NCBI GenBank assembly: GCA_964187785.1
Contig: OZ076411.1
Coordinates: 31,124,001 to 31,188,000 of the forward strand
Reading direction: 5' to 3'
Length of the DNA: 64,000 bases
From: Amphiscolops sp. MND2022
Lineage: Eukaryota
Shown in pieces: positions 12,481-53,181 of this stretch. A model generated the notes under the pieces. That model had not been told where the DNA came from. It saw only the letters and a list, made by a program, of their open reading frames with translations, and made no database searches. Made by a program: the position numbers and the translations under genes. Within the stretch, counting starts at the first letter, position 1, and every line of letters begins with the position of its first letter.

Positions 12481-13629
12481 TGATGACTATTCAAAAAAAC
12501 GATTCGAACAGTTTGCGTCTTAATGGCTAAGAACTACTAACAGAGATTTGAGTCCAAGACTCTGAAAGCTCACATTCAAATGTCTTCTCTCGCTCGCTTA
12601 GCCTCTCTGCGCTGCTCGTGAGTTCTTCGCTTGGTGCCTCTTGTTATAGAGATCTTCCTCAAGTTCGGGGATAAATGGAGTACTACACTCACAGATCTGA
12701 GTTTGAGATTGCTGGATTGATGGGCAACGTTTCGTATTTTTCAACGAGAACGTCACTGCGCTGCTCTGTCTTGCTCAAAATATCTGTCGTGACTTGGATG
12801 ATTGGGCAGTCCAATGTTAGCAGGTCTTCAAAGATATTCAGTGACACTGTACATTGACAGTATACTATGCTGCAAAAGTTTGTGAGACTTCGCAATGAAG
12901 CCAACAGCTGAGTTGTACTGTGATGCTGATAGCTGTTACTTCTGTGGGGTGTGATAGTATCGTTATTCAGATCTTGCCATAGGATCATTTTCGAATTTTT
13001 CAGTTCTTCAGTTTTTAGATAGTTGTAAACGTCTTTCGACTTGTTCACGGACTCTGGCTTAAAGCTGAAGCTGGGACCGGCGTGGAAGAGTTCTCGTAGT
13101 TGTTAACGAAACCTGATTTGAAGATCCTTAATAGAATTGTACCGTACAATTCTGTGACAGTGTACTGGCAGCAAAGATCTTGAGCATGCTAACCTTGAAA
13201 TCTCTTCTGGTTTGGACACCATATGTCGTTTTGCCAGCGGATCAAAACACTTTTCAATAAACAGTAATATTCACTAGAAGGCACATACCAAAGGGACATC
13301 GACTTCTAAAATAGAGCAAACATCGATTACAGCGAAATGTGAGGAAGACAAAGAAATCATTATACACATCACCTTGAAGTAGGAAAGACGGTGTGAACCG
13401 AACCGTCCCGCTCAGTTCTTGTATCACAGTGGATCGAATGCGCAACACAGATGTTCGCTCCAATTCAAACGAAGCACAAAAGGGGCAACTTCGTAGGTAT
13501 TCCATACTGAAATCCCAGCAAGATGTATGGGAAAAGCAGGTTATTGAACAGGAAAAGGTTATGGAAATGTTGAAACACTGGATGCGCATTAAGTTTTTTT
13601 GCGTTGAAAAATGGCTTTAGTCTGCCAAA

Positions 13630-14525
13630 GTTGTTTTACGTCTTGAGAACCAGTTTGTTATCCATCTCTCTTGGAAAAATTCGACAAAAATGTACCGGAC
13701 GGGGTTTCCAAAGTGTGTAACGTGAACTTCGACAAAATTTCGAGTATTCAGCTGGCTCTGCCCGCTGAAATATGTGGCCTTGGGGTTTCATCCGTATCAT
13801 TATTAGCACTTCCCGCCTTTTTAATGGCAACTTTTGGTGCGAGTGACTTTCTAACGACAATTTTTTCCAAAACCTTCGAAGATGTTCCCTTTTTAAAAGC
13901 TCTTGGGAAATGGTTGAGTTTGACCAAAAGATAATTCTCTCGATGGATCCTAGAGAAAGTGGACCCAAGCTGTCTACGTTGAAACGACTCAAGATTTAGG
14001 TTATAGAATGGATGACAAACGTTCGAAAGTTTTCAACGATTATCAAAACAGCTTCTTGTCTCAGTAACTGAACGTTGTTCCCTGCAGGAACCTATGCCCG
14101 AAACTGATGATCAGCGGCTTCGGATTTTGGTTGGCTTAGGTCTCGGAGCCAACATCTGTGTTGCGCATACGTACCACTGTGATACAAAAATTGATCAAGA
14201 CGGTTTACACGATCTTTCTGGCACTAAGAGTGTTGGTCGCTTCGCACGACTCGCTACTCTCAATTCTCTATTATAAAAAACATTGGGATCTCTCGACTTG
14301 ATTTCAATGCTCGAGTAGCGTGGATTTTACAGGACTGATGGCAAACGCTCAGACAATGTGTTACCGTGATTCCTTGACAATTGGGTAATCAATTGGTGTG
14401 GGATGTCACAGTTGTGGATGCTCTTTCACCCAGTCGCCCGAATCAAAGATCCTTAAGCAACCCGGAAACCACGTGCAGTTGAGGCCGAAGCACGTAAAAT
14501 AAACAACTAACGCAAAATAATAAAT
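13630..14525 (+). mobile_element. 3' fragment of a CRE-like non-LTR retrotransposon (restriction-like endonuclease), decayed
   Basis: QLALPAEICGLGV...LALPAFL, GLHDLS.TKSVGRFAR, then RTDGKRSDNV and QLVWDVTVVDALSPSR across stops and frameshifts. A-rich tail at about 14495-14527. Confidence 0.65.
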
Positions 14526-15350
14526 AATGGATACATTCTTCAATCGATGGCCATGGACGTACAGGGTTCTTACATGCGGCAGCAATAAAATTTTCCTTAT
14601 GCGTCGCTGTGAAACGATCTGTTGTTCACAGAACAGTCAACGAGCTGGTCGCTTTTCGATGGACCGGATCTCACTGGATCTTCAGATGGCAATGAGGCCT
14701 GTGTTCTAGGAACTGTGAGCTACAGAGATGAGTTTGAAAAATTACAGATATTTACCATTTTTAAGTTTGTATATCGTCGCAGCTCTTTGAAAAAACTGTT
14801 CCACCAGTCGACTGTGATAGTTTGTTGGTTGTTTTTTTTGTTGCTACTCGTCTACTGGGATATTGGTTGGTATGGGGTTTGCTCCTTTCGTTGCAGATCA
14901 CGGGTGTGCTCACACACATGACACTCGATTGATGAGGAATATCATGATATCTCATAGAGGAATGAAAAAAACAACTGGTTTAAAAGTACAATTTTGTTTT
15001 GTAGATGCTTGACTGTTGACATGTAGATATTTAAGTTGTTGACGCTTCGAGCAGACGCTTCGAGCGAAGTTGTCCTGGTAGAGAATGTCAATTCTTGACA
15101 ACCGCCGCGCAAGGAGGGACGGATCGAACGACGGGCCTTGACCCCCAAAGTTCAAGTACCTGCCAGATTGCGTCCCACACACAACTTTTGATGTCGGACA
15201 TTTTTGTTGATTTGCTGACCAGTCGCGTTGCTAAATATACCCAATGCTGAACCACTTCTATCAATTGCAAATGTTAATACACAAACCAGGTCTGATCATA
15301 CACATTCAGTCTCAATTCAGGTCTTCATACCAACCCAATCTGTTTTAAGA

Positions 15351-18172
15351 AGTTATGGGCTCAGCAGCTTCCTAGACGACGCCATCTACTTAGCTGATCC
15401 CAGCCTCGCCAGTTCACGATGACGGCACCACGACACCCTGGACGAGTGCTCCTGTTTTGCGGACAAGAGGATGGTTTCCTCACTTTTTGGATCTGGGTCT
15501 TTCTGACAGAATCAAAACAACACATCAAATAGACGAACGTGTCAAGCGAGAGGGAGAACTTGCAGATCCAGCCATATTCTAGTACATGATGGGAGCTGGT
15601 TCTGGGCCTTGACAATGCTAGAATCAGTTTTATTAGAGGGAACAAGCCCAATGGGACTGCAGTCTGGACAGCTTTGACGAAGCTCCACAAGTCAACTGAG
15701 CGGTATCGTGTTGAGTCACTGATGACACAGCCCACTTGTCTCAAGATGATATCAAGGGAGAACGTGACTGACTACCTCACCAAAGCAGAAGGGCTCAGAC
15801 GGGATCTGGCTGAAGTGATGGAAACGGTCCTAGATGCTCTCTTCAAAGAAGATTCTCATGGGTGCTCAAGGTGACTTCGACAGTGTGGTGGCAGTCCTCA
15901 CCTTCGGCAGAGCAAACAAGTACTACGGAATGAAGCAGGATTCGGTCAACTTCATGGCAATCAGGGGTCTCTGTGTTTCCAGTTAGGCATCGATGACAGC
16001 CTCTCACTCAGTCGGAAGAAAGCCTCCAAAATGTTTCAAGGGTGGAAAGATGGGACACCGCGCCAAGTCTTCCACAATCTGGAGACGATGACTTGCTGGA
16101 AGGGACAACAGAGGAGCTCAAGTGGAGGTAGTGTCTCGGGTGAGTCAAGCGACCATTCATCGGAGGAATTCTTCAGCTTCGGGGATATCAGGGCAGGATG
16201 CTACAAAAACGGGAGCATTGAAACGTCCCATTGACTCCAGGTGTAACGGCTTCGTGATCAAGAACACAAGAGATCAAGGAAAACGGCAAAAACGGCATAG
16301 GGCACTGTGATTGGAATGACGAGACGCATGATAGAAACTGCAGGGTTCCCTAGGTAGTTCTTGCATTCTGCTCTTCCAACTGCCGCCTACCTGGAGAGTC
16401 GAGCATTGAAACGTCCCATTGACTCCAGGTGTAACGGCTTCGTGATCAAGAACACAAGAGATCAAGGAAAACGGCAAAAACGGCATAGGGCACTGTGATT
16501 GGAATGACGAGACGCATGATAGAAACTGCAGGGTTCCCTAGGTAGTTCTTGCATTCTGCTCTTCCAACTGCCGCCTACCTGGAGAGTCGATCAATCCTTC
16601 CGACGCATGGCAAGACTCCTTTTGAGGCGCTTCACGGGAGCGAGCTTGACCTTTGACATCTTCACGTGTTTGAGTGCAAGTAGTTTGGGCTCAACAAAGT
16701 CAGGAAGAAGCTGAGCCACAGAGTCACGGGAAGTACTTCTACTGGGATATTCGGAACACTCCAAGGCATATGTGGTCGCCTCAACGGACGGGTCACAGAA
16801 AGAGGCACCAATGGTCTGATGTCACGAAACGTCAACATCAACGATGAGGAATTTCCGTATCGACGTGGTTCTGCAGTCACCAATGAGGAAAGCGGACACG
16901 ATGAGGCATCTCAATCGGATGTTGATGGTCTGAAGTCGAGGTTAGGTGATCAATGAGAGGGCACATCTACGAAGACCAATGCAATCCAGGTCGAATAAGA
17001 AGAGATCATCGATCCAGATGAAGGGACACACAACGGACAGTACAACAGTAGTGGACAATTTGATCCAGCAGACATCAACCAGATGTCCGGGATGGACTCC
17101 AAAGGCCCCTGAACACTTCGGTGACTAAATGACAGGGAAAAAATTGGAACACCTGGACTTTCACTGAGATGCTTTGATTTCAAGTGGCTATCCAGGCAGT
17201 ACAACAGATGTCCCGGTGGATCCCAACTGGAATGCAGCAGTGGACAGAGAGTTCAAATCACTCGAAAAAAATGATTTCTGGGTGTTGGTCAAGCCGCCAT
17301 CAGGACAGGACATCATCAGCGGAAAGTGGCATTTTGCTCGCTCACAATTTAGTTGACGGAGGAAACAACGTGGTGAACTTCAAGGCACTATTCGTAGCAC
17401 TCAGGTTTACTCAGAATTCGGGCATTGATTTTCACTACACCTACTCGCCCTACAGCGAAGCTGTCCACACTCAGAATTGTCTTGGCATGTGAGGGGAAGT
17501 TGGGTATGTATTTCAATCAGATGGACTTGAAAACAGCACATCTGAATGCACCAATCAAAGAAGACATCTACATGGGGCAGCCAGAGGGGTACCAAAATGG
17601 CTAGCAGGTGGTGTGCAAGCTTAAGCGCACACTTTTTGGACTGAGTCAATCGCGACTCAATTGTTTCAAGTGTCTCTCTTTTCATTTGTTTGAGCCCAAT
17701 TTCAATGCATCAGTTTACGACCCTTGCTTGCTGACAATGACGACGAATGGTTGCAATTGCTTTTATAGTTGTCCGGGTGGATGATAATCTTTACGGGTCA
17801 ACTGACAGTCCATTTACTACGTGGTTCAGTGACATGATGAGTGAGCTGTTCATATTGACGAAAAGTGAACAATCTGACGTGGTTCTTGGTAGATGGATAC
17901 TGACTGCTAAACAGTGATGAGCAAGGAGTTCAAATCAATCGAAGAAAGTGGTGTCTGGGAGTCAAGCTGTCATCACGAAAAGTCTTCATCAGTGGAAAGT
18001 GGCATTTTGCTCACAACCTAGATGACGAAGGAAACGCGGTGAAGTACAAGCCACGATTCATGGCACAAGGGTTCACTCAGATGCCGGGCATTGATTTTCA
18101 CGACGCCTACTCACCTACTGTGAAGCTGTCCACACTCAGAATTGTCTTGGCATGTGAGGTGAAGTTGGGTAT
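15351..18172 (+). mobile_element. Degenerate Ty1/Copia element (PBS, gag, integrase and RT remnants)
   Basis: AGTTATGGGCTCAG at 15351-15364 resembles the Copia PBS GGTTATGGGCCCAG. gag UBN2-like VTDYLTKAEGL. RT remnants KLSTLRIVL and NAPIKEDIYMGQPEG. The RT 5' segment is present twice (about 17228-17510 and 17925-18172). Confidence 0.75.
16213..16588. repeat. Perfect 188-bp tandem duplication
   Basis: 16213-16400 equals 16401-16588 by eye. Confidence 0.9.
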
Positions 18173-18984
18173 GGAAAACAAGCCTAAAAACAAGACCTAA
18201 TGCAATTCTTCTTGAGAGAGATCACAAACCAACAGATCACAATGCAATGAGTTACAAGAGTATAGTGTGAAACCTCCATTATTTGGAAAAGCATCATAAA
18301 ACGTGAATCAATAACACTGCAAAAGGGGCCTACCCTGCTTTGTTGAGCAACCATGCAACATACAGAGTGTCAAAAAACTACCTATCTTGCTGATGAAAAC
18401 GTTGCTAGTATGATTTTCAGCTGTAATTCACGACGGAAATAATTTTAGATATTCTGCACAATGAAAAGAAACGTTCAAGGTGAGCACTCACTAGGCGGAA
18501 ACGTTTGGAATAATTCCTTAATGTGAAAGTCTTCTTCGACTTGGCGTGAAAATCTTTGAACGAAACGTCCTTTTTCTTTCACGGATCTCCATCAAGCTGC
18601 TTGTCCACAAGATTTTCCTTGACGAATCATAAATGTCGCTACTCTTCTTCAGAACAGCTTCCCGCATGTTGTTCTTTTTTTAGCACATTGAAAATACATC
18701 TTTGACGTCTTGTGGCACTTTTTGTTTTTCGATTGAAGGACTAGAATGACAATTTTACTAGGCGCAATATCAGCTACTTTTGATTTAAGTTTAAGTGTAC
18801 AAATTTTAAAGAGCTCCGACAACTTTCAGGATTAGTTTCAAGACTGTCCCAATCAATTTTGCCGAGCTCAGGCATAAGTTTTAGGTAGTTTTTGATTTAA
18901 CAAACCGTTCGACGCAAACGAACTGTGAAATCCAACTCGCTTCGATGCGAAGTACAAGCTTCAGGGGATCATTGCCAGAGTGAC

Positions 18985-20443
18985 TGTCGCGACATTGTTT
19001 GCCTGTGTAAGAGTCTACTGAACTCTCTCTAGACATTCGTCTACGATTTTCCTGTGTAAAACACGTTTTGGGGGCAGTATTGCCACGATTGATGAGTATT
19101 TTCAACTTCGGGGTTCCGTTGTAGCCCACCGAACTTTCGGTCCACCATTGTGTAATTAGCTCTCCCCTGCGTATCTAGCGTATTTTGGATAGAAGGAAGT
19201 ACTTTCTCAGCTATCGCTGTAATAAATGCGTCTTGTACCTCACAATTGAAGCTAGATTTGATCTCAATGAGTTTCCTGGAAATTTGATTAGCAATTTCAT
19301 CCCCAATCATTCGAGTAGTCTCTATGGTCATTTCACTATTCTCTCTACTTTTAGTAGTTAGTAGTGATCTGAAATCCTCTCCTGTAAGATTAGTTATGTT
19401 TGTTGTGGCCTATTGGATCCCAAATTTAGTTCGTTTTCACTCTGACCATTCCTCGCACCATCCCTCGAATAACTGCCTAACATTATGTCAACGTGTTCCA
19501 CGTCGGACAACATGTCCAACTGCCTAAAACGTCTTTTCTTAGCTCGTTGCTTTCTGGTAGACGGCATATGGAAACTTGAAGTTTTCAAGATTCAGTTAAC
19601 AGAAAAATGTAGGGTAACAAAGAGAGAAGGTTTTGAGGAAGTTTATCACGAATCAGTATCGCAAATTGTATGTTCCAACATTCAGTTCAATTGTGTCCCT
19701 CCGGACTGAAAATCACTGCTATTAATACTTAATACTGCTTGACCAGCTAACATTAGGGTGTTATGTTACTATAAATAGGTATTGCTTGTTCCCGTTTGCC
19801 TGACATTGCCTGACATTTAAATACTGTGATGAACAATTTGTCAGTTAAAACACTTTTACGGACTTAAAGTCCACTTGGCTACAGCACAGAATACATAAGC
19901 ATTGGAGTGAATTTAAATAATACCACGGCGGACTTCCCGCTTGCCTACAGTAAATGTATATTTGTACTGCGCTGTGATTGGCTGTTACTACATTGGACCG
20001 CGTGTACTGCTAGCTACAGGAAACGATCATTTGAACTCGTTTCCTGCTATGTGTTTACTTGTACGTTTTAGTTTAAACATTGAATCGCATTAAAGTCCAG
20101 CAATTATACAATCCTGAATAATACTGCTTTATCTTAACAATCTCCCAAACACAAACAGGTATTTCAAACACAGATGGGTGAATACATGAAGTAATATTTT
20201 TAAAGCAGTTCACAAGCCGAACGACTCATGAATTAGATACAAAAGTTTGTTGTAGCTAAATCCAAAAAGGGTCTCTTATGGTTGAAATGAGTTTTACTTC
20301 AGTAGTGAGTTGAACTGTTTGTAGCCGGTTGTCCTCAGTGTCTAGTACAGTTCATATGGGTAATACTCTATGTGGTGGGATAGGTGCGTGGTTCCCTGCC
20401 GGTATTTGATCGAAATCACCGTCGTAGGCGGCAGCCTGCGACA
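18985..20443 (-). repeat. 3' LTR (1459 bp)
   Basis: Collinear with 33023-34536, preceded on the minus strand by the PPT, and bounded by the TSD. Confidence 0.92.
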
Positions 20444-23400
20444 CTCCCCCTGGGACGAGAATGACAAAACCAGCTCTGATTCCAGCTTGAAAGGCTTTTC
20501 TTCTTCTGAACCTCTGAGCGTATTTTTCATCAGGCTCGTGAGTTTTCGCCAAAGAGCCCAATGTAGTTTCTTCTTGAAACATAGCAAATGATTTACACAT
20601 ACGGTGCAATCACCATGTTTTACCTAGTTTGCTTCGTCACACACTCTGTTGGCGCTCATCGCCAAACCTGTTATATGCGAATTTGTTGTCCATGTTTCTT
20701 CGTCTTCTGGCTCTGTTGACTATTGGGCGTATCTTGCACTAGCCGAAGGCCCTTGATCAATTAAAGGGGGTGATATAGGTGAGTACGGAACGGGTTCTAC
20801 TCTGCTACACTTAGCCAAGGGGTGATTTGGGTCATCTTCTACTTATGTCCCTAAGGTGGGACTCCCTATGAACCAATCGACAAAGCTGTCCGTAGGGTCG
20901 AAAGTAGAGTCAACTGATCCTGACAGTCCACATAGTGACTGAACCTGTTCCTCTCCCTTGTCATCGCTGGTCCCGCTACTAATTGAGGGGGCGTAAACAG
21001 GTGTCTCTCTGTAGCAAGCTATTACTTCTATGTCGCGATCCCCTTCTTGGCTGTCGTCGATTACAGTTGTTGATTCTGTGTCGATCACCATATCTTCATA
21101 CGACAGATTCACACATTGCACTGAATAGAGGGCGGATAAATTCTTCTACGTCAAATTGCAATGACATTTCGCTTTGGTAGCGTGATAAGAGAAGTTTCTT
21201 CGCAATTGTGGTTGGGTAAATACCCGATAGTGTAGGTAAAAATGGGCAGAATGATTTGCTCCCGCCAGATAGACCCTGAGTCTTCCTCGGTTTCGCGGGA
21301 ATCATTTATGTGGGAAAACATGGTTATAAGTTTCCAAAATACCCTAAACGTTTCTTTTCTAAGTAAGTGTTACTATTAGATAAACTTCGTCAATCAGTTG
21401 TTAGGCTAATTAATATGTCCTTAAATGCCTCTTAATTTATTTGGTTAACAGCAAGTGAGTTGTTAATTATCAATGAAAGTGTTGACTTGCGTTATATATC
21501 AGTTAATAAAATTACCATCAAAGACCACCGGTCCAAGCGGCTACAGTTGAGGCGTCGTCCAATAAGATGGCTGTAAAAAATAGTACGATCAAAGACCACC
21601 GGTCCAAGTGTCTCCAGCCAATGCGTCATCCAATAAGATAGCTGTGATGAATAAATGAATAATTTCATCAACATAATGAGTAAAGATGGATGGAGGAAAA
21701 AGCAAAATTACTGGTGAAATAAATATGATGAAACGCCTAAATAGCGAAATAAAGTAAAGTTACATGAATGCTACTGACAGGTTGCAAACATGAAAGGTTG
21801 GCACTAAGTAGTAATCATATTAGTTGATACTAAGTAAGTAAGATTTCAGCCACGACGTCCAGATTAGGTAATTTTCATGCAAACATCTTGAAGTGTCGAG
21901 TTAGTTAGCTGTCTAGTGTAGTTTAGTCTAATTGAATTACCTTTCGGGAAATAGTAGTTTGAACAATATGCTAAAGTCTGTGTTTGTTCTACAGCTTCGA
22001 CCTATCGTCCTTGTGACTAATCAGTCTTTATTGCAATTCATTCTTTAAATATCATTTTCCGATTCTTTAATAATAATTGACTTCTATCACAGACTCAAGT
22101 TCTATCCAATTATCAACGTTGGTCCTTTGGTCTTATCCCCTACAATCCCAATCATCAACAACTCTCCAAACCTGCGTCAGTTCAGTCAGGATATCCCCTT
22201 GGTATTCAAAGTCAGACTCCACGTTGTGTTTCAAATTCTGCTTGTTCGATATGGAAACAGCATCAATTTGGTTCTTTTTAAATTGTGTCTTAGCACAAAC
22301 TTGACCAGGGTTTAGCTTCGACACATGTTACTTCCTCCATCGCGGAATGTGTTCATATTGAATCGTAAAATGTAGATTATTTCCGGAAGTTTTGAAAGTG
22401 CGGCAAGTTGTACTGATATTCAGGAAGCGAACCGCGTAAATTTATTTCTTTCCATTTAGGCAAAGAAATTAATGACCAACCACAACAGACGCCCATTGAG
22501 ACTGAAATGTTAACTATCCCGGGGCCGAAAGAGATAGGCGAGACTCACGAGCTATTTAGAACCAGCCAAATGACTTAGCAAACTGAACAAATAGACCAGG
22601 GGTCCCCTCGGCCACAAACTTCACCCAATTTGTCTTTGATATCCCGACTTTTCGCTACGGACAGCAGTGGCTCAAATGAGAGTTGCGGCACGTATATCAC
22701 GTGCAAGATGGGTCAGCTGGAGGAAGCAGCTGTCAAGGTGTTTGCTGAAGTGACCAAGTTGGCCCAACGGGATGTCATCAGCGAACCTTTTGGATCACCC
22801 CAGCATTCAGCAATACAATTACAATCGTTTTTCAGAGACAAATCATCCAGCAGTAGTTTTCCTAGATTCACCGAAGGAAGTCATAGATAACCCTGAACTC
22901 GAATGTCCAGAATCTGCCGCCAAACGTCCACCGTCCGTCTCCGCATCTGAAAGTTTGACCACAGACACTGCAGTCACAAAACGGAGACAGACGGAGCCTG
23001 ACATAGCTGAAAAGCACGTTACAATGCAGCCACCATTCGCTAACTTAAGCGATTCAGAGATTGGGCAAAAATCTGACTCTGAGTCTAGACGTTGTGCTGG
23101 CTCTGCCTTGGCGGAAGCGTTGCATCCTGCTGCTGGAGAGTCTCTTCCAGAAACTAGTGACCTGGTCAGTAATGTTACTCCAGACCATCTTCCAGCTGAG
23201 CCTAGGATTCTTCCCTCAGGAGGCCGAATTCGTGCTCTTATCAGGGAGTACTTTACCGAAAATGAGTCCTTCAGACTGTCTCCCGGACACCCGACCATCG
23301 TCTTCACAGAAGGCCAAATTAGTAACGTTTTGCGAGTTGTGGCAGATGAAACAGCCCGGGTATCATATGACATGCTCGAGAATCTCATCCATCGAGCCAA

Positions 23401-24390
23401 TCGTTTATCTCTGACTTCCGTGCCAATTGGTAGCGGAAATAACAAGAAGGGCTCAACGAGGAGAGAATCTTTTGTTGTCACAAGTGAGGGCCGATACCAG
23501 GATTCTTCCTCAGGGGGTTGCAGTGACACCAGCGGCGCGCTGCAAAATGATGATGACTTCGCTAGCATAGGTTACTCCTAAGAACACTCTGAACCGGATG
23601 TGATAATTGGACCACCTCGAGCCACAATCAATTCAACCTGGTTGTAGCCGAATGGACCCAAGTTCACCCTTCGGTTCTTTCAATGCTGATAGCCCGGAAC
23701 ACAAACTTTGGCCGCTCTGAAGCAAGAAGCCATCCAGGATCGCCAACATCGAACACGAAATCAGAAAGGACGTTTCACTTCCGCTCCGCTTAGAGGCTCT
23801 GGAGCACGCAGGAAGGTTTCGAGGACATGCAATGTGATGAAAGAAGCTTACTCCATTGGCATGGAGTGAACTCGCACTTTTGTATCTGATCCAGTTGGTC
23901 CTAAATGGAGTCAATATAAAAATTGTTTGCTAGATCTGTGAGGCAATTATCTCCATCTACTCCAAAGGTACCTGCGAGATTTTGAGAGATCATGCCAGCG
24001 AAGAACATCTGCGAAAAACCCAACGCTGGAGGTATGAGTACTTATACAAGGTAGACCCGTATACAAAGGCTGGTGTCCCACAAGTCCGAGGCAGAGATGG
24101 CAAACTCCTCACTCCATACCAGTTGGCGCTTGAATTACCAAAGTTCGAGGACGCCAAATTAGTGGACATTGAGGAAAAACTCCCATTTTACGTCGAATAT
24201 ATGGCTCGAGCTGATCATATGTCGTATTCATCAGAAAATCAGCACAGAATACAAATTTCAGTGCTAGGACAGTTTCTTCCTTAATACGGCAACATTGACA
24301 TAATCGCAAGTTTCTGGCGAGATGTAAGGGGTCATTGTGAACCACCAGTCCTTGTTCACTGACTTCAATTGGACAAAAGAACGCCTCACA

Positions 24391-24539
24391 GTATGTAGTT
24401 ACTTTTGGTCAAAGATATTTATCTGAACATATAAAAAATATAAACCGTAGTCGATTAGCTGCATGGACATTTTCACATCCAGTGACGTAAGGTCAACTTA
24501 TCATCTCAAGCATTGACTAACATTCGATTTGCATTTCAG
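24391..24539 (+). other. Predicted spliceosomal intron (149 nt, phase 0)
   Basis: Donor GTATGT, branch TGACTAAC at 24514-24521, acceptor TTTGCATTTCAG. Joins DFNWTKERLT to VLFHHMFL. Confidence 0.7.
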
Positions 24540-25232
24540 GTGCTGTTCCACCACATGTTCCTTGACATATTTAGTGACAATGGGGATAATATCATTTCAA
24601 GCAATGAATATGCCTTGAAATTCGCCAATGACGGAATCTTCTCGCTAGTATTTATTGGTTCTGGCAAGTTCGGACCGACTGTGCAGAGTCTTCCTCAAGA
24701 GGACTGGAAGGACCTAGTGCCAGTGTCAAGCCGAGATCACACTCATATCCCACGTGATAGGCGCTGTCTCTAACGGGCCTGATTCATTAGCATAACCTGC
24801 TGTACTTCCCACACTGTTGAACTGTTGGACTTGAGCCCTTTCGGCCAGTATGCAGCGCAAAGTCCTCCCAGCTTTGAAAAATTGCAACTAAGAACCCTGA
24901 CTAAATAAAAAGGCTTCTAGTGTTTTTGGGCGCATAGACTTCTTTGCAGTTCTCCACTATCTAGTCGTCTCCCTTGGGTCTAGCCTCGAAGTAGAGTGGG
25001 TGATGCTGTCGCCAGGTTTATCTAAGGTAACTTTCATTGAGCTAGACTACAAGTTTTCCTTAGGTGCTCCTCTTCGAGATATTCCTCAATATTGTAGGCC
25101 ATCAGGACTTGCCAGCTAGAGCTAAATGGTCTGCCAGTTTTGCGCCAAGAGCTGCTAAAGAACTGGTCCGAGGTCACAGATTACCTGATGCAACACTCAG
25201 CTTCCCAACAACTGCAAGGAATCCGTAAACAG

Positions 25233-25410
25233 GTAATGCCCACAATTAATCACTTGTGATCTAAGAGAATCTTTAGAAGTACATACATGTAGACAATGGG
25301 ACTAGCATAGTATTCATTTCTCCTAACCTCATAAGCTGCACGCTCTACATGTATTCGTTGATCTAGTCTCTCATACTCAAGGTATTATATGGATTTCGTT
25401 GTTGTTATAG
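25233..25410 (+). other. Predicted spliceosomal intron (178 nt, phase 0)
   Basis: CAG|GTAATG donor and TTGTTGTTATAG acceptor. Joins LQGIRKQ to VQSLDWF. Confidence 0.6.
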
Positions 25411-26758
25411 GTACAAAGTTTGGACTGGTTCATGGTTTACGACGAGTACTTCCCAACTCGCCTAGAGATCTTTCACCGCTTGGTCCAAGATTACACCACT
25501 AGTTTTACTTTAAACTTGAAACAGCGCCGCGACCGAGGGTTCAATGTGTTCCGGGAGCTAAACCAGTTCCTCTTCAAAGTGGGATGCACCTCTTCAAAGG
25601 GAGGAGATGTATTCGCCCAAGCTGTCTTCTTGCAGAAAACGACAATCGGAGAATCCTTAATCTTTCTGTCCCTGATGTCAAAGCCTTAGGAGTGAGTAAC
25701 CTCCTGTCTCCTTCTAAGCTGGACACGACTTGACTTGGCTTGTAAGGCTACAGCAGAGGCGGAAAAGAGTGAGAGGAAAAACGAAGGTCTCACTTTGGAG
25801 GAGGTCTCTAAGAAGTACAAAAAACAATTTGCCAGAACCGCCCACAGCTATGTCATTTTCCTGTTCAAAGGGACGCAGGGGCCAAGTCGCTTCACGTCAG
25901 ATATTGTTAAAGGGCTTGGCTCATTTGATCTGGATGTCATGCTTGTATATCCTTTAAAAAATGCAGCGAATTGTTTTAAACAACTGGACTCCACACCGAG
26001 GACTATATGTCATTCCTTGACGTCCTTCGGCAAGCACACCCAGGGGTAAAACAGCCGAAACTTCTAACTGCAGACTCTATCGAATTCGTTTCTAGCCAAG
26101 AGGCCCTCGGGGTTAGACCACATCTAAACCGGAAATTCCGCTGGAGTTGTCTTTGTCTCGACGAGCCTCGGTTGTCTTTTTCCTCTGTTAAATTCGGATC
26201 CCATCGGACTGTCGATCCCCTTAGCCCGTTACTCGTGGACTAGATGTGCTCACTTCGGAACTTTCTGTAGCTCAATTCCTGTCCTTAGAACAGTCGTTTG
26301 GAGATGCTGGCCTCACTGACGTCTACAGCGCCTGGGACAGCGTCAACCAATTTGGCAGAGAGAAGATTAGAGAAGCCTTAGATCATAGCGGATCAAACAG
26401 CAAACAACGATGCTGTCCCCGAGTCCAATGTGCCTGAAGGGAGTACTGCCTTGAACTCTTTTCTTGTGCCTAAGCCAAACAAACGCCGGAGTTATTTATT
26501 GTCTGAGGATGAATTGACTGCATCTGCCACACGACTAATTGCCGGAAGCAGCAAAGACTAATTGTACTATATGTACAATTGTAATCCAAACATCAATTCG
26601 TAAATACTGTTTTTGTCTATTTGTTGTTTGCTATTATTTTCAGATAAAATCAAGAGACAGAGAGGTTCCTCATAAAAGACATAACTGAGAGTTGGGACCA
26701 TAAATAACATCTCTGACTAGTATCTGGGTTCATCAGTGACGTTGGGGTTGGGGTTAGG

Positions 26759-29700
26759 TCAAAGGTTATATTTCCTTTCCCTAGGACTTTCATTATCTAC
26801 AATTATATCATCATTTTCATTGTCATTCGTGCGTTCAGAGCGTTTTTTTTCAGTCAGATCAAAGTTTTCATTTTCATGTGGCCCGGTGGACTGAAAGTCC
26901 ACGTCGGTGAATTTTTCACCTGAAGGGCTAGCGTCGTCCTCGAGACTCTTAGAAATGTTTGCGGCATCTAGACGTGTAGTAAGCGTGACTTCTTCGTTGG
27001 AATTGACAAATTCTCCAAATTTAGCTTCCCACGTGATGACGTAAAAGTCATCCTGCGGAATGACAATTCTATCATCCGGTGGCAAATTGCCTTCCAGTCT
27101 AATGTCTTGTAGGACGGTATTCGGTTCGTTCTTACGCACTCTAATACGATGTAGGATTTGCGTTTTGTTGGAATTGAGTTTTCTGACTATGTAGTTTTCA
27201 TCCGGGAGTACTTTTTCCACTATATAGGGTCCGATCGATCTGTATTCTCGAAACAGAATTTTCGAACATTGATGGTCTGCTAGAGGTTGTAAAATGAAAC
27301 AATAGTGGTTTTGCTTCGCATGGGCCGCTTTAGTCTTTCGGTCGTAATGTTCTTTATATATCAAATAGAAGTGCATGATGTTTTTCTTCGTCGAATCTAT
27401 TAAAATTTGCGCGCGTTGGTGAAATTCATCTGCAAAATCCCTAGTCGGAACGACTTTTAGGTTTGGATTAAGGCCCAATTTGTGATCTAGTATATTGTAT
27501 GGAATTCGTCCACAAAAAATTCGAGGTGGTTCGCAGCCCAGAGTGGCGTGATAAGTCGTATTGTAATTTATTATTGCTAGTGGCAGATATTTATGCTTTG
27601 ACGCCTGTAGTCCACAGAGGCCATTTTGAGATTTGCCTTAAGACTAGCATGGGTGCGTTCTAGTTTGCCAATTGTTTGCCGATGTTTGGTAGTTGAACAT
27701 TTGGTTTGAATTCCCAGAATCTGAGCATTTTCGGCTACCAACTTTGACGTAAAGGTTTTTTCTTTGTCAGCTATCAAAGAAGCGGGCAAATAGGTGTATT
27801 TTTCCATTTTGTCAATGATGAATTTTGCCGTATTTGTGGCAGATGCGTCGGTTACTGGGTAGACAAAAAGATATCGCGGGAACACATCCATTGCGGTTAT
27901 GAAGTTTTCATATCCCCCGCTTGGGGTTAAATTCGGTAAGATGTCAATTTGCATTGCGTCTTCGGGACCTAAGTCCCATTTCGGTAAGTCAAGTAATTCC
28001 GGGGTGATATACGAATGAAGAATCCCTTTGTCTTTTATGCAGATTTCGCAACCTTGAACCCATTTTTGCTATACCGCGGTAATAGTATTTTTGTCGAAAT
28101 TCGATGAGAATCTTGAAGATTCCCGGATGTTTACTTGCCTCCCCGTGGAGGGAATCAAGTAGTTCCGTGACTAGATGTTTCGGCAGTAGCACCTGATTTT
28201 ATTTTACAGAACCGGTTTCGTCATAATACTGCCTGGTGGTAATTTCGTCCGTGTCGGACAGTCGGTCGAATTGGCGACAGTAATAATGATATCAGTTATT
28301 CTGCCAGCGAATGGTCTCTGAGTAGTCGTTTTTCGATTTTTTAGTCGCAGCTGTTGTAGTGTGACGTCATTGTTCTGCTCTATTGCCAGAGAATTGGTAT
28401 TTGATTGTTTTTGTGGAAAGTTTCTGATAACAGCTTTTATGTGTAGCAAATTTTTCAAAGCAAATATCGAGTATTTGGTTCATTGAGTGTGCTCTTGTTT
28501 TTACGTTCCCAAATCTGTTCAGTCTCGTCATCGTACTCAATATAGAAGATTTGCTCTTGCTCAGACACTCCCGCCGATTGGACGTGTAATTCGATCAGTG
28601 TTGTGTCTTCTCGAATTTTGAGGATAAGTTCCTATTTTGGAGAAATTTCTAGACGAGATAAATAATCAGCTGTCATGTTGTTTTTGCCAGGAATATGAGC
28701 AATGGTGAAATTGAACTGGATAACATGGCATTCCACTGGCATTCCAGAGTGTTGATGGAATGTTTTTCGTTTGAAAGAATCTCGTGACTGATTTATTGTC
28801 TGGCAGTATTATCACCGGTTTCGGGGTTCCAGAAAGTTTATGTCCAAATTTTTTAAAGCCAAGAATATTGCTAAAAACTCTTTGGCGTATATGGACATTT
28901 TCAATTGGGTAGGACTAAAGGTCTTGGATCCATAACCCACTGGTGCGAGGCTTTTCTCGTAGACCTATTTTTCTCGAGTGGATCGGCTTCGATGAGAACG
29001 GCGTACCCTGTGGCTGAAAGGCTAGCATCAGTCATAAGAGCTATTTGCTTATTCGGTAGGAGTTGTTTGAGTGCCAGTTCGCAAAATCGGTCAAGAGCCT
29101 TATTTATCTCGGCGAATTGTTCCAACAGCTCCGGTATTACCAGGACTTTTTAGTCTTTTGTCAACGTTTCGAAAAATGGAGCGAGTTTCTCCAAAATTCT
29201 TGTGATGTAGTTCCAGTAATAGTTTAGGAATCCCAAGTAGCGAGTCAAAGCTTTCTTAGAATTCGGGAATTTCGTATTTTCCAAGAATTTTCGGACCCGT
29301 GGTCCCTGCGGCTTCACCACGACGGGAGTGATGGTTCGTCCTAGAAACTCGATCTCTGTTGCTCCAAAATGACATTTGTCCATCGTTAGCTTCAAGCTAG
29401 CTTTCTGGATACACTGGAAAGTGGCCCGAAGGTTGTTGATGAGTTGTTCGGCATCATGAGCGGCTATACCGATGTCATCAACTCGCACATTGGTCCGCTT
29501 TTATGACCTTATCTAAATATTCGCGTATGAAGCAAGAAAAAACTGAAAGGGCACGACTGAGACCTTGTGCCAATTGGCGATAGGCGAACGTTCTGCTGGC
29601 GAATTTAAATGCAAGCAATTCAATAGACCGTCTGTCGGCCATTTGCAAACAGTGTGGTAGGCTTGCGAACAGTCCAATTTGCAAAAGAATTTTTTGCCTG

Positions 29701-31193
29701 CCATGTTTTCGGCGGCGTCAGTCAAGGTACTGACCGAATGATTGTTGTGAATGTAGTCGTCGGAGATCAAGTTGTTAAATTTCTGCAAATCGACTAAGAG
29801 TCGCAATTTACCGTTTGGTTTCTTTCGGGCAAACATTGGGCTTCCATACTTGGATAACGGGATTGTTGTTATAATCCCATACCGATGGAGAAAGGCCAAT
29901 TCTACAAGGAAGTCCTCTTTGAGAATGATCGACGTCGGTAGGTTTTGACTGTAGGCCGAAGAATTGTCATTTAGCGGTAATATCACTTTGAGTTCTTCGT
30001 TCATGCCAATGTCGAAGCGATGCTTGGCAAAGGTGTCATGAAATTCGACAAGTAGGTCTTCGATGCGAGTAATTTCGTCTTGTTGGAGCATAGAGTCCGT
30101 TCAGTCGAAGTTGCCTAAGAATTCTTGTCAAGACTCATAGTTGTTCTGTGGATTAGGTTTTTCAAGTTCTTAAAGGTTGCGCATTTCGGACAAAATTCGT
30201 TTTTGAATTGGTGTGTGATGCTGAGGATCCCCAAGGTCTTCAGGTGTTTTTCTTGAAGTCTTCAGGTTTCGTGGATTTGATTAAGCTACTTCAGGTCTTC
30301 AGTAGTTTTTCTTGAAGTCTTCAGGTTTCGTGGATTTGATTAAGCTACTTGCGTAATGAGCAGCATTCTCAGGATTATCTTGCAATAGGTGCCACGTGGT
30401 CACCGGATCAATAAGTTTAACATATTGCATCTGTTCCGCGGTCAAGACAGTGAAATTTGCAACTTGCGTACCTCTTTTGAGAGTGTATGGGGTGTCGGTG
30501 AAATTGTTCAGATGAACATCGCCTTGACCTTTGATCAAAGTGACTAGAGCAGCACAAAAAACTATACAAAAAACAACATCGCCATCATCGGTGAGTGTGT
30601 TGCTCGGTTGAAGTATGCCAGTAACTGCAGTGTCTTCATACAGTTGTGAGGCCATAAGGACTAGATGTCGATCATTAGGTGGGATGGTGACATCCTCCCT
30701 AATGCAGATGGGTTCCAAGACGTTGGTGTACTTGTGATCCGCTGTTTGCAACTGCATAGAGACAAACGGAGAAATTTAGAACACCTTGCCGCATGTCCAG
30801 AATGGTGCTATTCCATTGGAGGAATGAAAGGCCAATCAATGGACTAGTGAGTTTTTCCATAACTATGAATTTTTCATGGAAATCTATGTCTCCGACTTCA
30901 AACTTCAGCTCGACTGTGCTCTTCGGAGTTTCCAGCTGCCCATTAGCAACCATGATTTCGAAGTTGGGTGCCGGGACCTCTTTGACAAATGTCTGAGGAG
31001 CTAGTAATCGGATTGTACGTAGATCGGCTTCTGGGATTGCGCTGGAAAAAGCTCCCGTGTCTACAAGTCCATCTAAAGTTAGTTCGCCGAAACCCATTGG
31101 AAAATAGAGCATGCGTCGCTTATATTTGAGGCCAAGATTGGTCGTCATTGGTACATAGTCTGTTTCCTCTGTTCTAGTGACTAGGGTGTTCAC
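26759..31193 (-). pseudogene. pol: Gypsy pol (protease, RT, RNase H, integrase), heavily disrupted
   Basis: LVDTGAFSSAI; KLDCSQAYH; RVDDI; LMTDASLSATGYAVL; HGEASKHPG...CEIC; MQIDILPNL. Split into more than 8 ORF pieces. Confidence 0.92.
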
Positions 31194-31449
31194 AAAACCT
31201 GCTGCAACGGCTGTTGCCAGGGAGACCTGTGATCCCCAACGGTGAAACTCGTTGTCATCGTTACGATGAGTCCGTTGATGAGTAAGTTGTTGGCTGTGTT
31301 GTCATTGGTCAACTTGAGCGTTTGCAAAGACGGTATTCAGAGCTTGGTATATTTCGTAAGAATCCGGCTCTATGTCCTGATCTGGTTTGGTATAGTTGTT
31401 GTAAAAGTGTAGATGATATTGATTATAGGTATTAGCGTCCCAGTAGGGG

Positions 31450-33023
31450 TCAAAACCATAGCCAGTTTCGGGGTAATAGTTGATTGAGTTCTTCAAGGAA
31501 ATCAGGCAGTTTCATGGTGTTTGGATCAAACACCAGTCTGTGACTTTTGTGTTTGGCGGTCGCTTGGGACTCCGGTTTGACGCATTTCCTGCGAAATACG
31601 GCCAAGATGACCTCCAATGTCTGCCTGTTTGCCGTATTGATATTACGGAAAGTTTGTATATCATTTTTCCGTAACAATGAGTGAAAATGGTTTGTCGTCA
31701 ATTAGAGCTATAAATCGTATACTGATAGCATCGGTTTGTAGTCTCTTGGACGTAGGGTCCAAAGTAGTGGAAAAAGTCGGTGGAAATGACATCTGCTGCT
31801 GCCAGTCAGCTGATGGTGTTTCTTTAAGTGATGTGTAATGTTCAGCGTAGTATATGTTGGAAAGGTCAGAAATTATACACTGTCTAACTCGAAGTAATTC
31901 AATGATTTGGAGTCGTGGCAAATCTAGTTTTTTGGGTTTTTCAGAATGGAAGTTGTTTGTTTATTAGTGGCGTCGTTGTGACTTGTGGACGCTTCATCAG
32001 TTTTAGAAACCTCTAGTTTGAGGTTTTTAGGTTTGAGGTGGGCTCCAGCGCCTTTCCAACAAAGTTCCACCGGTTGGTTTCTTCTTTTTTACAAGTCGGA
32101 CACTTTGGATACTCTTTTTTGGTATTCTGGCCGTCATTGCGTTTCTGTTCTTCTTTCCGTTTGAGTTTACGACATTCGTCTTTTGTATAACCCGGTTTTT
32201 TGCAATTAGTTGCAAGTTATTCCTGGGTCGACGCCCTTGAAAAGAAGTCCTGTTTTTGATCGTGTTGCTGACGGTGCCGTTGACATTGTTGGTACAGGAA
32301 TGTCGTCACCCTCCTCAATCTGTTCAATTCTAATTCTCTTTCTAAATGAGCAACTATTTCTTCAAAGGTTTCGTTTCCGAGTCTAGCAATATTGACTGAG
32401 CGTTTCAGTTTTGGCGGCAGTTTGGCATAGAGGAGGCTGTTAACCATTGTCTGGGCGTTTTTCCCAAACGCTTTTTCAGCTCCTTGATTGAGTTCTTCGA
32501 GGAAATCAAGCAGTTTCATGGTATTTGGATCAAACACCAGTCTGTGACTTTTGTGTTTGGCGGTCACTTGGGACTCGGGTTTGACGCATTTCCAATGTCT
32601 GCATGTTTGCCGTGTTGATATTAGGAAAGTTTGTAGATCATTTTTCCGTAACAATGAGTGAAAATGGTTTATTTTCATTGCTTCGGTCATATCAGGCTGC
32701 ATTTTGATCATTGTGTGAGAGAGATATTCAAAAAATTCAAATTTCACCGATTTGCCGTCAAACGTCAGTGTAGTCGTGCTGACTGGGCGTACCATTAGGG
32801 TTTGCGCTGATGGACGGTTTGTCATGCCGACCAATACTGCAGCAAGACGGTTAATCGGGTCTGGCGGGGTAGTATGGTTTGTAGTCTCAAGGACTGGAGG
32901 GACAGTGTCCTGAGACTCGTCATTGACGGAATCTTGGCGTTGCAGGGGTTCACGGGATTGCATGGGCCGTCCAGTGAGGAACTCAGGAACCGTATGTGGT
33001 GTAGGCTTGGCTCCTGTCACCAT
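31450..33023 (-). pseudogene. gag: gag (MVTGAKPTPH...), disrupted, with an internally duplicated segment
   Basis: ORF 32217-33023. The NHFHSLLRKND...DFLEELNQ block recurs at about 31490-31700. Confidence 0.8.
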
Positions 33024-34536
33024 GTCGCGATTTTTTCGCCTGTGTAAGTGTCTATTGAACTCTTTCTACACATTCGTCTACGTTTTTCTTGTGTGAAACA
33101 CGTTTTGGGCAATTTTCCCACGTTTGATGAATATTTTCAACTTCGGGGTTCCGTTGTAGCCCACCGGCCTTTCGGTCCATCATGGTTAAATTAGTCGCTC
33201 TTGGGCTCTCTTGTAGCCCAGAGGACCCCCGGTCCACCATGGTGTAATTAGCTCTCCCCTGCGTTTCTACCGTATTTTGGATAGAAGGGAGTACTTTCTC
33301 AGCTATCGCTGTGGTAATTTCGTCTTGTATCTGAGAATTGAAACTAGATTTGATCTCATTGAGTTCCCTGGAAATTTGATTAGCAATTTCATTCCCAGTC
33401 ATTCTAGTAGTCTCTATGATCATTTCTCTTATCTCTCTACTGTTTGTATTTAGTAGTGATCTGATATCCTCTCCTGTTAGATCAGAGTTTTGTTGTGGCC
33501 TATTGGAGACCAAATTTAGTTCATTTTCACACTAATCATTCCTCTCCTCTCATCCCTCGAATGACTGCCTAACATTATATCAACGTTTTTCACATCGGAC
33601 AACAGGTTCAACTGACTAGAACGTCTTTTGTTAGCTCGTTGCTTTCTGGTGGACGGCATATGGAAACTTGAAGTTTTCAAGAGTCAATTAACAGAACAAC
33701 GTAGGGTAACAAAGAGAGAAGGTATTGAGCAAGTTTATCACGAATCAGTATCTCAAATTGTATGTTTCAACATTGAATTCACTTATCTCCCTTCGGACTG
33801 AAAGTCACTGCTATTTATACTTAATACTGCCTGACTAGCTAAAATTAGGGTGTCATGTTATTATAAATAAGTATTGCTTGTTCCCGTTTGCCTGACATTG
33901 CCTGACATTTAAATGCTGTCATGAACGATTTGTCAGTTAAAATACTATTACGGACTTAAAGTCCACATGGCTACAGCACAGTATACATAAGCATTAGAGT
34001 GAAATTAAATAATACCACGGCGGACTCACGGTCCGCGTGGCTACAGTAAATGTATATTAGTACTGCGCTGTGATTGGCTGTTACTACGTTGGACCGCGTG
34101 TACAGCTAGCTACAGGAAACGATCATTTGAACTCGTTTCCTGCTTTGTGCTTACTTGTACGTTTTAGTTTAAACATTGAATCGCATTAAAGTCCAGCAAT
34201 TATACAATCCTGATTAATACTGCTTTATCTTAATAATCTACCAAATACAAAGAGGTTTTTCAAACCATGATGGGTAAACACATAAAATAATATTTTGAAA
34301 GCAATTTGCAAGCCGAATGACTCATGAATTAGATATAAAAGTTTGTTGTAGCTAAATCCACTAATGGTCTCTTATGGTTAAATGAACTTTAATTTAGTAG
34401 TGAGTTGAACTGGTTGTAGACTGTTGTCCTCAGGGTCTATTACGGTTCATATGGGTCATACTTCATGCGGTGGGTTAGGTGCGTTGTTTCCTGCCGGTAT
34501 TTGGTAGAAAACCGTCACAGGCGGCAGCCTGCGACA
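33023..34536 (-). repeat. 5' LTR (1514 bp)
   Basis: Collinear with 18985-20443 plus an extra internal repeat unit of about 55 bp; followed directly by the PBS. Confidence 0.92.
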
Positions 34537-36663
34537 GTGACCTTGATTTTTTTTCAAATGAATCATCTATCTTCGGGGTACCGTCAAAGGTAATTGCTAT
34601 CTATCGAGCGACATCAATTGCATCTCGAAATCTACACGGAATTTTCTGGAAATCGGCCTTACTATCCTCTATTCTAGTGTGATTCCTAGTGTGATCTCAT
34701 TCGTATTCGTGTTATCCCTCAAAAAAATACGGATCAATGATTTGATACTTCGGAAAATGTGGATATTACTTTAAATGACAGGGCAAACTTCAGGTCGTAA
34801 TATCATGTTTCTCGCAGCTCTGTGACGGTTATGGCAGAAGAAGATGAGATACTTTTTTATTGACAAAAACTTTTCGAGCTGAACAAGTGTCAAAATGATG
34901 AAATGTGATTTTCATCACAGTGTTTGACTTATTTCGTACAATGTTTGATTGCCTCTGTCGGTATGATTATCCAGAGAGTTTAACGACAAAATTTTCTTCA
35001 TATTTTTTTCATCAGAGTGCTTAAATAGAGTGGAAAAAATCATGTCAAAACTTGAATAGTTCCGTAGGATTTGTTCATTAGCAACACTCGGGATTCTAAA
35101 AACACTGTTGATAAATTCCAGGAGGGATATAGGCCGGTGCTCAGCGGGTGTCATTTGATTGGCAGTTCGAAAGACAAAAGCGAGAAAGTGTCAACCGTCA
35201 TTGAATGTAATATTCTAAGCCTCTCAAAACCGTCCATTTTCGCCGATACATGTAAAGCAACAATCCGTTCAGTGATGAGCACAGATGTTGCGATACATCA
35301 ATAGGCAACACAATTTTGTTTTGAGATTGTAAAGAATTATTGGAGAAGCAGTGGCAAATGATCTACGAACGTCTTGAAATTGGTAAAACGTCCAAAAAAA
35401 ATTGCATGATTGTCTGATGGAACTTGATAGATCGCAAGGGTTCAACCTACATTGATGTCACGGGTGCTATCCATGTTCAGCATGTTACTTGGCTTGAGGA
35501 ACATTTAAAAAACGATAGATTCCACATGAGTTACAATTCACTTGATTGCAATTTTCAAATGTTTTGTTTCCTTTGGAAAGCGTTCAATCAAAATCAATAA
35601 AATCTGCAATAATTTGTTTAAATGGTTCCAAAGCAAACTACCTCAGAAATTGGGAAACGTTTGAGCATCTGGATGTTTTCCAGAAAAGAAATACCAAACA
35701 CTTTCTAGAAAATATATCGCTGACCAGTTCCAGTGATGAAGGAACTTTCTATCATTGGAATTGTGCTGCAAGTCATTGCTTACTATCCATGTTCGCTTTT
35801 TATTTTTGCGCCTTTTCATTACAGGTTCAAATCAGTGTGGTTCAAATATGGCCAGGTATGAAAACTTGTTGTCATTTTCAGTCTTACTTTCTGAAAGAAA
35901 AACTACTATAGTTGTGGTATTTGTGAGACATACACCAACTGACAGATTCGTAAGTTTTCATTATAAAGATTTGAAGTATTCGCAACTTTGGTCCAGTGGG
36001 CTATTGTCACAGAATATCACATATAAGGTCGTGGGTTCGACGTTCGTCATAAACCGGAAGCTTTGATTGTTACTTTGGCTATAAAAAGGGGGTTGGTTTG
36101 ACTACACTATTCAATGGAATCGTTCACTTTTGGAGAAAGTAGTCTAACTTTTATTCGACGCTTTGTGAAAAAAACTACTAATATACTGGATTTTCGTCGT
36201 CTTGTTTTCGATTCGGTCGAAGTGACCAAAAAAGTTATACGATAACCTCGATGACTAAAGAGGGTCAAAAGTATTCATTTTTCAAAAGAGTCCTTCCTTT
36301 CATTTTCTCAAAAATTTTTTGTTGGAACTACAAAGCTCTATGTGAGTTTTTTGCCCCTCTGTGGTACTGTGAGATTCCAAGATGGTAAAGAAAACGTTCG
36401 TGTGCAAACAAAAGCGCCTCATGCGGATGGAAGTTTCTCTTCAGTTGTTTTGAACAGTAATTCACTCGCTTGAACTTCTAAATGAGCAGAACATTTCACT
36501 TTCAGTACATATCTCCACAGCGGATTTTAAAAATGCTTTGTTGGGCTCACAAAAAGCGTCATTATTCGAAATGCGCATTTAGAATCTTTCAACTGGTTAC
36601 ATTTTGAAATCAATTCTGAAATCAGTTGGTTTTATTGAGTTCTTGGTTGCGTTGACATACCAG

Positions 36664-44600: not shown

Positions 44601-44681
44601 TGACATTTGGTTTTGGAATGAAACGGTTTACTTCGCAGAGTATGACGTTTTCAAGGATTTAACATGGAACAATGTTTTCAG

Positions 44682-53156: not shown

Positions 53157-53181
53157 TTGTAATCGAGCATTTCAGCAAAAA

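Follow-up and report, generated by a model that had tools for sequence, protein, structure and literature searches.

We analysed a stretch of 64,000 nucleotides from Amphiscolops sp. MND2022 (assembly GCA_964187785.1, contig OZ076411.1, positions 31,124,001 to 31,188,000 of the forward strand; hereafter the window, with position 1 as its first letter). A Ty3/Gypsy retrotransposon on the minus strand of the window carries an antisense gene of three exons at 22408-26561 (+), between its pol gene and its polypurine tract (PPT), with a coding length of ~3.8 kb or ~1270 codons. This gene, called the cargo below, is almost certainly a real spliced gene, as judged from the sequences of its relatives. 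Its protein resembles hAT transposases in the order of its parts, and a quasi-palindromic motif recurs throughout the retrotransposon, in the cargo as in the rest of the element. By analogy with the VANC proteins of plant DNA transposons, we suggest, with a probability of about 0.5, that the cargo may be a hAT transposase co-opted as a resident, sequence-specific accessory regulator, which would be self-activating or anti-silencing.

A spliced antisense gene and its probable relation to hAT transposases

Exon 1 of the cargo (22408-24390, +), which is broken in the window copy, encodes a Ser/Thr/Pro-rich acidic N-terminus of ~440 residues, a basic stretch, a BED-like zinc finger and a helical region. 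It is followed by intron 1 (24391-24539, +; phase 0, 149 nt), exon 2 (24540-25232, +), intron 2 (25233-25410, +; phase 0, 178 nt) and exon 3 (25411-26561, +), the stop codon of which is at 26559-26561. The GC content is 34-36% in the introns and 47% in the exons. An initial annotation, made from the sequence alone, had placed an antisense gene with two introns in the stretch between pol and the PPT, and both phase-0 introns are now backed by relatives. The intron that it had described with a GTATGT/TGACTAAC/TTTCAG signal set is intron 1, in which TGACTAAC is found at 24514. The start, previously put at 22500 for a gene of ~3.7 kb, is corrected to ~22408; a conserved MD.YSGSEPR-type beginning is present in 21 of the 67 exon-1 relatives and aligns from 22417.

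The intron boundaries can be read from the relatives. The pattern at the end of exon 1 is matched by 41 of the 67 relatives (the other 26, truncated, shifted or variant, are not counted), and in 40 of them the residue directly after the exon end is Val, a GT codon, beyond which the sequences diverge; this is the GT donor at 24391. In the relative P0031, the read-through tail matches the acceptor region of the window in a shifted frame. The relative P0151 passes from exon-2-like to exon-3-like sequence without a gap (blastp E = 2.6e-4), which confirms intron 2, and P0220, P0234 and P0250 also seem, by eye, to be continuous at this point. We further noticed that the intron content of the family varies. 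Among P0151, P0109, P0141, P0220, P0234 and P0250, some lack intron 2 and some have a possible extra intron early in exon 3, a pattern that suggests intron gain or loss within the antisense cargo.

The stretch upstream of the cargo (20455-22407, +) is non-coding, contains no long open reading frame (ORF), and presumably serves as the antisense promoter or 5′ untranslated region (UTR). Acceptor- or branch-like signals on the plus strand, at 21990-22095 before the start and at 26600-26643 after the stop, may belong to UTR introns. The window copy of the cargo is a pseudogene, with ~6 stops and 14 frameshifts across 3.6 kb aligned, and no second copy was found within the 64-kb window. The density of such breaks per kb is 4.4-10.5 in the cargo versus 1.9-4.6 in pol, which is of the same order, the count for pol being too low because its guide protein is more distant than that of the cargo.

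On these comparisons, the cargo belongs to a large, old and conserved protein family. The exon-1 read-through query yielded 67 relatives among 138 candidates, all from ENA and 53-75% identical; these 67 clusters represent 564 member sequences, and intact exon-1 ORFs of 650-740 residues are common among them. The exon-3 query yielded 29 relatives among 147 candidates, and an exon-3 profile matched 602 representatives (50%-identity clusters; 150 of them listed) at E <= 0.001 among 1.84 billion, whereas the exon-2 query yielded one relative (P0104) among 168 candidates. Identity among the exon-3 relatives ranges from 15 to 96% (median 34%; 64 of 87 rows), and a quick version of the exon-3 tree was used solely to show the depth of the family. 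For six exon-3 clusters, the longest source contig is equal in size to that of an exon-1 cluster, as would be expected if the exons are neighbours. A scan of prokaryotic genomes found no cargo relative. Among the 23 relatives with a full start, the finger and the helical part have a median identity of 74% and the N-terminus one of 34%, which indicates that selection acts on the cargo protein.

The finger lies at 23867-24008 (+), and in the family it has the pattern W-x3-F...C-x2-C-x16-H-x5-H. Its four ligands are conserved in 65 (C), 64 (C), 67 (H) and 64 (H) of the 67 exon-1 relatives, and it is preceded by a basic stretch with 33-38% Lys plus Arg. A finger of BED type had been annotated here as C-x2-C...H-x4-H; it is indeed BED-like, but the family spacing is H-x5-H, and the finger is broken in the window copy. 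With a structural model of the finger as a query, the BED finger of ZBED1 (2ct5) ranked second in Foldseek, a weak match (E = 1.9), and that of Hermes (8eb5) gave the top VIA row over the finger (Z = 3.1, root-mean-square deviation (rmsd) 3.7, 51 residues aligned).

For exon 3, which encodes a helical region and a variable tail, a model of the relative P0081 was built from 87 sequences (predicted local distance difference test score (pLDDT) 83.6). Among the 48,161 chains compared, the top rank went to Hermes transposase (Z = 6.0, rmsd 6.0, 183 residues aligned), with residues 1-300 of the model aligning onto Hermes 347-609, from the insertion domain to the C-terminus. This alignment is the longest among the best 50 rows. 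When the structural matches were re-ranked over the PDB, Hermes was not among the matches listed.

Exon 2 occupies the position expected of the RNase H core. By eye, its two available sequences show three strand-like segments, a helix and a strand, which may represent a shortened RNase H-like pattern of the kind found in hAT proteins, and the exon also contains the putative start of a helical insertion domain. A C-x-x-H is found at 24801-24812 in the window copy, and its His is replaced by Gln in P0104. No entry was returned by the ESM Atlas for exon 2 or exon 3. The catalytic and motif residues of Hermes are D180, D248, H268 and E572 (PMC2533014, PMC4763223). When mapped by spacing, neither of the two exon-2 sequences has an Asp near the D248-to-H268 distance; P0104 has a Tyr twenty residues ahead of the His position, and the core is apparently ~25 residues shorter. 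The cargo protein is probably catalytically dead. Since the weak matches are collinear and follow the order of the parts in hAT transposases, the cargo protein is likely hAT-derived, and the previously suggested hAT link is supported by structural matches that are individually weak.

A motif spread over the host element

A repeat search revealed a word common to the LTR (long terminal repeat) of the host and to a 71-bp tandem duplication upstream of the cargo (21513-21645, +), each unit of which contains a site. The motif, GAC-N5-GTC-N5-GGC and often then TACA, is 19-23 bp long and quasi-palindromic. All 11 exact matches in the window lie inside the host element (0.17 expected for the whole window): the LTRs and pol have four each, the cargo has one, and two are upstream of the cargo. 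Sites are located at 21264, 21523, 21594 and 21999 in the non-coding upstream stretch, at 26881, 28257, 29294 and 30651 in the pol region, at 31759 in the gag-like region, and at 33216, 33953 and 34023 in the 5′ LTR; the sites at 19861 and 33953 represent the same LTR position. In an unsupervised search for tripartite words in the de-duplicated element, the motif came out on top (10 seen, 0.07 expected, log10 p = -18.1), whereas none of 25 Markov shuffles went beyond -7.5 and three other segments gave -7.0 to -7.4. The second, env-containing element of the window (49737-63214, hereafter the env element) has no comparable motif (best log10 p = -7.0), and the motif was not found in the window's other LTR elements. 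A matrix built from five non-coding sites gave, at a score of at least 12 bits, four matches in the cargo and seven in pol/gag, some of which are both strands of a single site, and no match in the 47.7 kb outside the element.

The sites occur in both orientations, so recognition on DNA is likelier than recognition on RNA. These results suggest that the motif ties the cargo to its host and could be a candidate target site, and because this private motif is common to both, cargo and host probably have a long history of joint inheritance. The distribution of the motif favours an accessory gene that is co-adapted with its host and has long resided there over a swap-in payload. The 3′ antisense slot with interchangeable spliced genes that the initial annotation had suggested for this Gypsy lineage is conjectural, as the plus-strand pieces of the env element are unrelated to the cargo and the two host elements are distant relatives. 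That the cargo protein binds the motif as a regulator is, by analogy, an evenly balanced proposition.

Several observations weigh against the co-option of a hAT transposase as such a regulator. The finger model is of low confidence (mean pLDDT 50), and U1/matrin-type fingers score near BED in its comparison. The Z of 6.0 for Hermes is tied with the unrelated helical protein Fel d 1 and is no higher than chance arrangements can give. Foldseek gave no significant match for either the finger or the exon-3 model in the PDB and viral libraries, and every structural match falls under the threshold of its own tool. No hAT, BED or TRP28 match was obtained from Pfam in 64 cargo-family queries (four window pieces, 11 close relatives and 49 of the 150 listed distant relatives). 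In the relatives there was no zf-BED or Dimer_Tnp_hAT match, nor any match above the cut-off, the sole signal being a sub-threshold ZN292-like C2H2 (E = 3e-4 to 3e-3) in five of five exon-1 relatives. Sequence searches of the PDB with three alignments and P0104 returned nothing related. The reading of exon 2 comes from sequence pattern, with a single relative (P0104) behind it; one Asp that both sequences have just past the first strand, and an exon-3 column of acidic residues (D in 52 and E in 12 of 74), could be catalytic. The pattern of the motif, for its part, was defined after the element had been seen and from a single copy of it, and a host factor could be what binds these sites.

The alternative that survives best, although we consider it unlikely, is that the cargo is a resident hAT-derived antisense gene with another role, such as bringing the integration complex into the nucleus or to its target or tethering it to chromatin, or that it acts as an antisense RNA, the motif being bound by the host. 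The evidence for residence and for selection applies equally to this explanation, and a review of plant elements credits antisense additional open reading frames (aORFs) with roles in nuclear import and double-stranded RNA (PMC7264820). It is less easily reconciled with an element-specific motif that none of the window's other LTR elements has, with the nearly invariant zinc ligands, and with the fact that a spaced quasi-palindrome is the type of site bound by a pair of BED fingers (PMC10368747).

It is also conceivable, at distinctly lower probability, that the cargo is a nested hAT transposon in one Gypsy copy, with eroded terminal inverted repeats (TIRs) and target site duplication (TSD), and that its relatives form an independent family of DNA transposons. 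A hAT anatomy with introns is, as general knowledge, ordinary for DNA transposons, and the high copy number is compatible with this explanation; the ~11% divergence of the LTRs could blur a short TIR, and motif sites on either side of the gene (21264-22594 and 26881) are reminiscent of subterminal repeats. However, a comparison of 20455-22420 with 26560-26800 gave 55 inverted pairs of at least 11 bp, versus 50-66 in five shuffles; the longest was 14 bp, versus 13-16 bp in the shuffles, and none had a convincing TSD. The initial report of no TIRs or TSD around the gene is borne out, with nothing above shuffles, though decay could conceal very short ends in such a search. The right end has just 197 bp available, which is the whole gap between the stop codons of the cargo and pol. 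In addition, the motif also occurs in pol, gag and the two LTRs, all of them older than a nested insertion would be. The Asp at the second catalytic position is apparently missing, yet the ORFs are constrained across deep subfamilies, so a carrier other than cut-and-paste transposition would be needed. In view of these observations, the cargo is probably a resident part of the Gypsy element.

Least probable is a resident gene of non-hAT origin, namely a zinc-finger/helical protein captured from the host or a virus, with a chance likeness to Hermes: the absence of a significant sequence or Foldseek match, the ZN292-like signal and the near-BED scores of U1/matrin-type fingers would fit it, but two separately modelled regions both indicate Hermes/BED in the correct order, the exon-3 alignment with Hermes is the longest of the best 50 rows (183 residues), and exon 2 in between shows the expected strand pattern and C-x-x-H.

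Two further candidates were rejected. A Helitron would have a 3′ hairpin ahead of CTRR and a Rep/helicase; the CTAG at 26718 has no stable hairpin (z = +0.72), and no Rep or helicase Pfam match was obtained. Homology of the cargo to the gap between pol and env of the env element was also dismissed, since neither blastn nor tblastx gave a match better than E = 0.1.

The host element and the rest of the window

The host Gypsy element is complete but decayed and has a size of 15.55 kb. Self-comparison and alignment gave a 3′ LTR at 18985-20443 (-) and a 5′ LTR at 33023-34536 (-), both with TG...CA termini and 89.7% identical across 1451 columns (Kimura two-parameter distance 0.11). The TSD GTGAC flanks them at 18980-18984 on the left and 34537-34541 on the right. 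The PPT (20444-20454, -) adjoins the 3′ LTR, and the primer binding site (PBS; 33009-33022, -) adjoins the 5′ LTR. The decayed pol region (26759-31301, -) contains protease, a dUTPase-like segment, reverse transcriptase (RT), RNase H and integrase; the order protease-RT-RNase H-integrase was recovered with Pfam and with tblastn against the pol of the env element. The Pfam matches of protease, RT and integrase follow the Gypsy order, that of the RT fragment being under its cut-off. The end of pol at 26759 leaves 6.3 kb before the 3′ LTR. The gag-like region (31302-33065, -) is also decayed and has a partial internal duplication; it has no Pfam match and is labelled gag by its position.

The dUTPase-like segment lies between protease and RT at 30299-30775 (-), with a Pfam E of 0.0097 that is under the cut-off. 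A dUTPase in this position has been reported for rotifer, fungal and planarian elements (PMC6431247). An ORF of 159 residues is found within the 5′ LTR (33052-33531, -), and another ORF (32217-33065, -) crosses the end of the 5′ LTR and the PBS, so the gag start appears to be inside the LTR. The 3′ LTR retains a counterpart ORF at 19041-19409.

The host and the env element indeed share the pol motifs that had been noted, as well as the first 11 bases of the PBS. Their pol proteins are ~33-47% identical, and by this measure the two elements are of the same broad clade, not sister families. The env element has 335-bp LTRs that are 99.7% identical, with long gag, pol and 683-residue env-like ORFs, and it is therefore very young. 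At 53710-54710 (+) it contains two ORFs separated by a GTAAGT...AG intron-like gap; when joined, they resemble an integrase-type HHCC zinc-binding domain (blastp E = 0.47) and are unrelated to the cargo. After its integrase, a Pro-rich region at 55505-56782 (-) ends in a segment without a Pfam match that looks macrodomain-like (ADP-ribose-binding).

The region 7874-14771 has inverted repeats of ~530 bp (73% identical) around degraded Gypsy-like pol fragments and other repeats. A degraded element at 15000-18200 (+), presumably Copia-like from its motifs, has 188 bp in tandem duplication and contains an RT fragment twice. A gag-like region with a weak CCHC knuckle (1-3356, -) is cut by the window start. 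A hydrophobic claudin/amastin-like exon at 44663-45163 (+) is probably from a host gene (weak Pfam matches), and a 1172-bp tandem duplication is located at 40327-42670.

Known systems and the proposed mechanism

Antisense ORFs between pol and the 3′ LTR are described for Grande, RIRE2, Retand/Tat and Boty; their origin is given as unknown, with no similarity to transposable elements that would support a nested origin, and both the review and the Retand survey call for spliced antisense transcripts to be sought (PMC7264820, PMC11963269). Like these plant and fungal elements, the host has a long region between pol and the 3′ LTR (6.3 kb here; 2.9-6.6 kb in Retand), an antisense gene, tandem repeats and a suspected DNA-binding regulator. 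Unlike them, the cargo has introns, ~1270 codons and apparently the whole hAT domain order, and it has no TRP28 match. By position the cargo is an antisense aORF (aORF-3R), and by the test of its ends it is not a hAT transposon.

Like the hAT transposases (Hermes, PDB 8EDG and 8EB5; PMC10368747), the cargo protein appears to have a BED-like finger, an RNase H-like middle with C-x-x-H, and a helical insertion and C-terminal region, in the same order. The BED fingers of Hermes bind a quasi-palindrome as a cooperative pair, and a repeated quasi-palindromic site is also common to both systems (PMC10368747). The cargo differs in that it has no TIRs or 8-bp TSD, a shortened core, an apparently incomplete triad and an extra N-terminus of 440 residues. 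The repeated site is spread over the retroelement here, whereas in hAT it is clustered at the transposon ends.

A functional parallel may be VANC, which binds short family-specific motifs that have accumulated in its own elements, partly via tandem duplication, and lifts silencing (PMC5735166). Transposases have been described to activate cognate copies, and regulators to arise through loss of catalysis, in a preprint whose available text does not mention LTR elements (10.64898/2026.08.24.746577). VANC of VANDAL and TnpA of Spm resemble the present case in combining an accessory protein with a family-specific motif that is found throughout the element and is partly tandem-duplicated. They belong to plant DNA transposons with motifs mainly in non-coding DNA, whereas here the carrier is an LTR retrotransposon with sites also in coding DNA, and the cargo protein would come from another element class than its carrier. 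No homology of the cargo to VANC was found.

LTR elements of rotifers carry diverse ORF3 cargo (env, esterase, exonuclease) and a dUTPase, and they share with the host element the invertebrate Gypsy background, the dUTPase segment and extra genes after pol; none of the ORF3 types listed in the available text is transposase-like (PMC5408684). In Arabidopsis, multi-exon antisense transcripts of Copia elements are non-coding (10.1101/2024.04.02.587720). The available text of the acoel genome paper PMC9911081 does not mention a gene such as the cargo. We found no description of an LTR element with an antisense gene that encodes a BED finger or derives from a transposase, in a search of literature on such elements and on acoel genomes that lay outside subscription journals, Repbase and supplements, so that prior annotation is possible. 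The ZBED family consists of single-copy, host-domesticated hAT proteins in which a transposase has turned into a DNA-binding regulator. ZBED proteins were domesticated by the host, whereas in the present case the domesticator would be another mobile element.

We tentatively propose that an LTR lineage domesticated a hAT transposase, with its introns, as its own transcription or anti-silencing factor and spread the site of this factor through its LTRs and coding DNA. A hAT element would have inserted backwards between pol and the PPT. Its antisense introns would be unseen by the splicing of genomic RNA and hence would be copied along with it; since it is RNA of the opposite strand that is packaged as the genome, they could survive reverse transcription. 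The transposon ends and catalysis would then have decayed, while the finger and the scaffold were retained. The cargo protein would be nuclear through its basic stretch, and its BED finger, probably dimeric through the retained transposase body, would bind copies of the motif in the LTRs, the 3′ region and the coding DNA of the element. The acidic Ser/Pro-rich N-terminus may then activate or de-silence cognate copies, much as DNA transposons are controlled by VANC or TnpA.

This case offers a candidate donor for antisense genes of LTR elements, a hAT transposase, together with a concrete candidate target site, and in the protection of introns it offers a reason for the antisense orientation. 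The function is directly testable by one binding assay and by co-evolution across hundreds of subfamilies, in which the finger and the motif would be expected to change together. If the proposal is true, one class of mobile elements would have domesticated the enzyme of another as a regulator, and a VANC-like system of protein and motif would exist in a retroelement.

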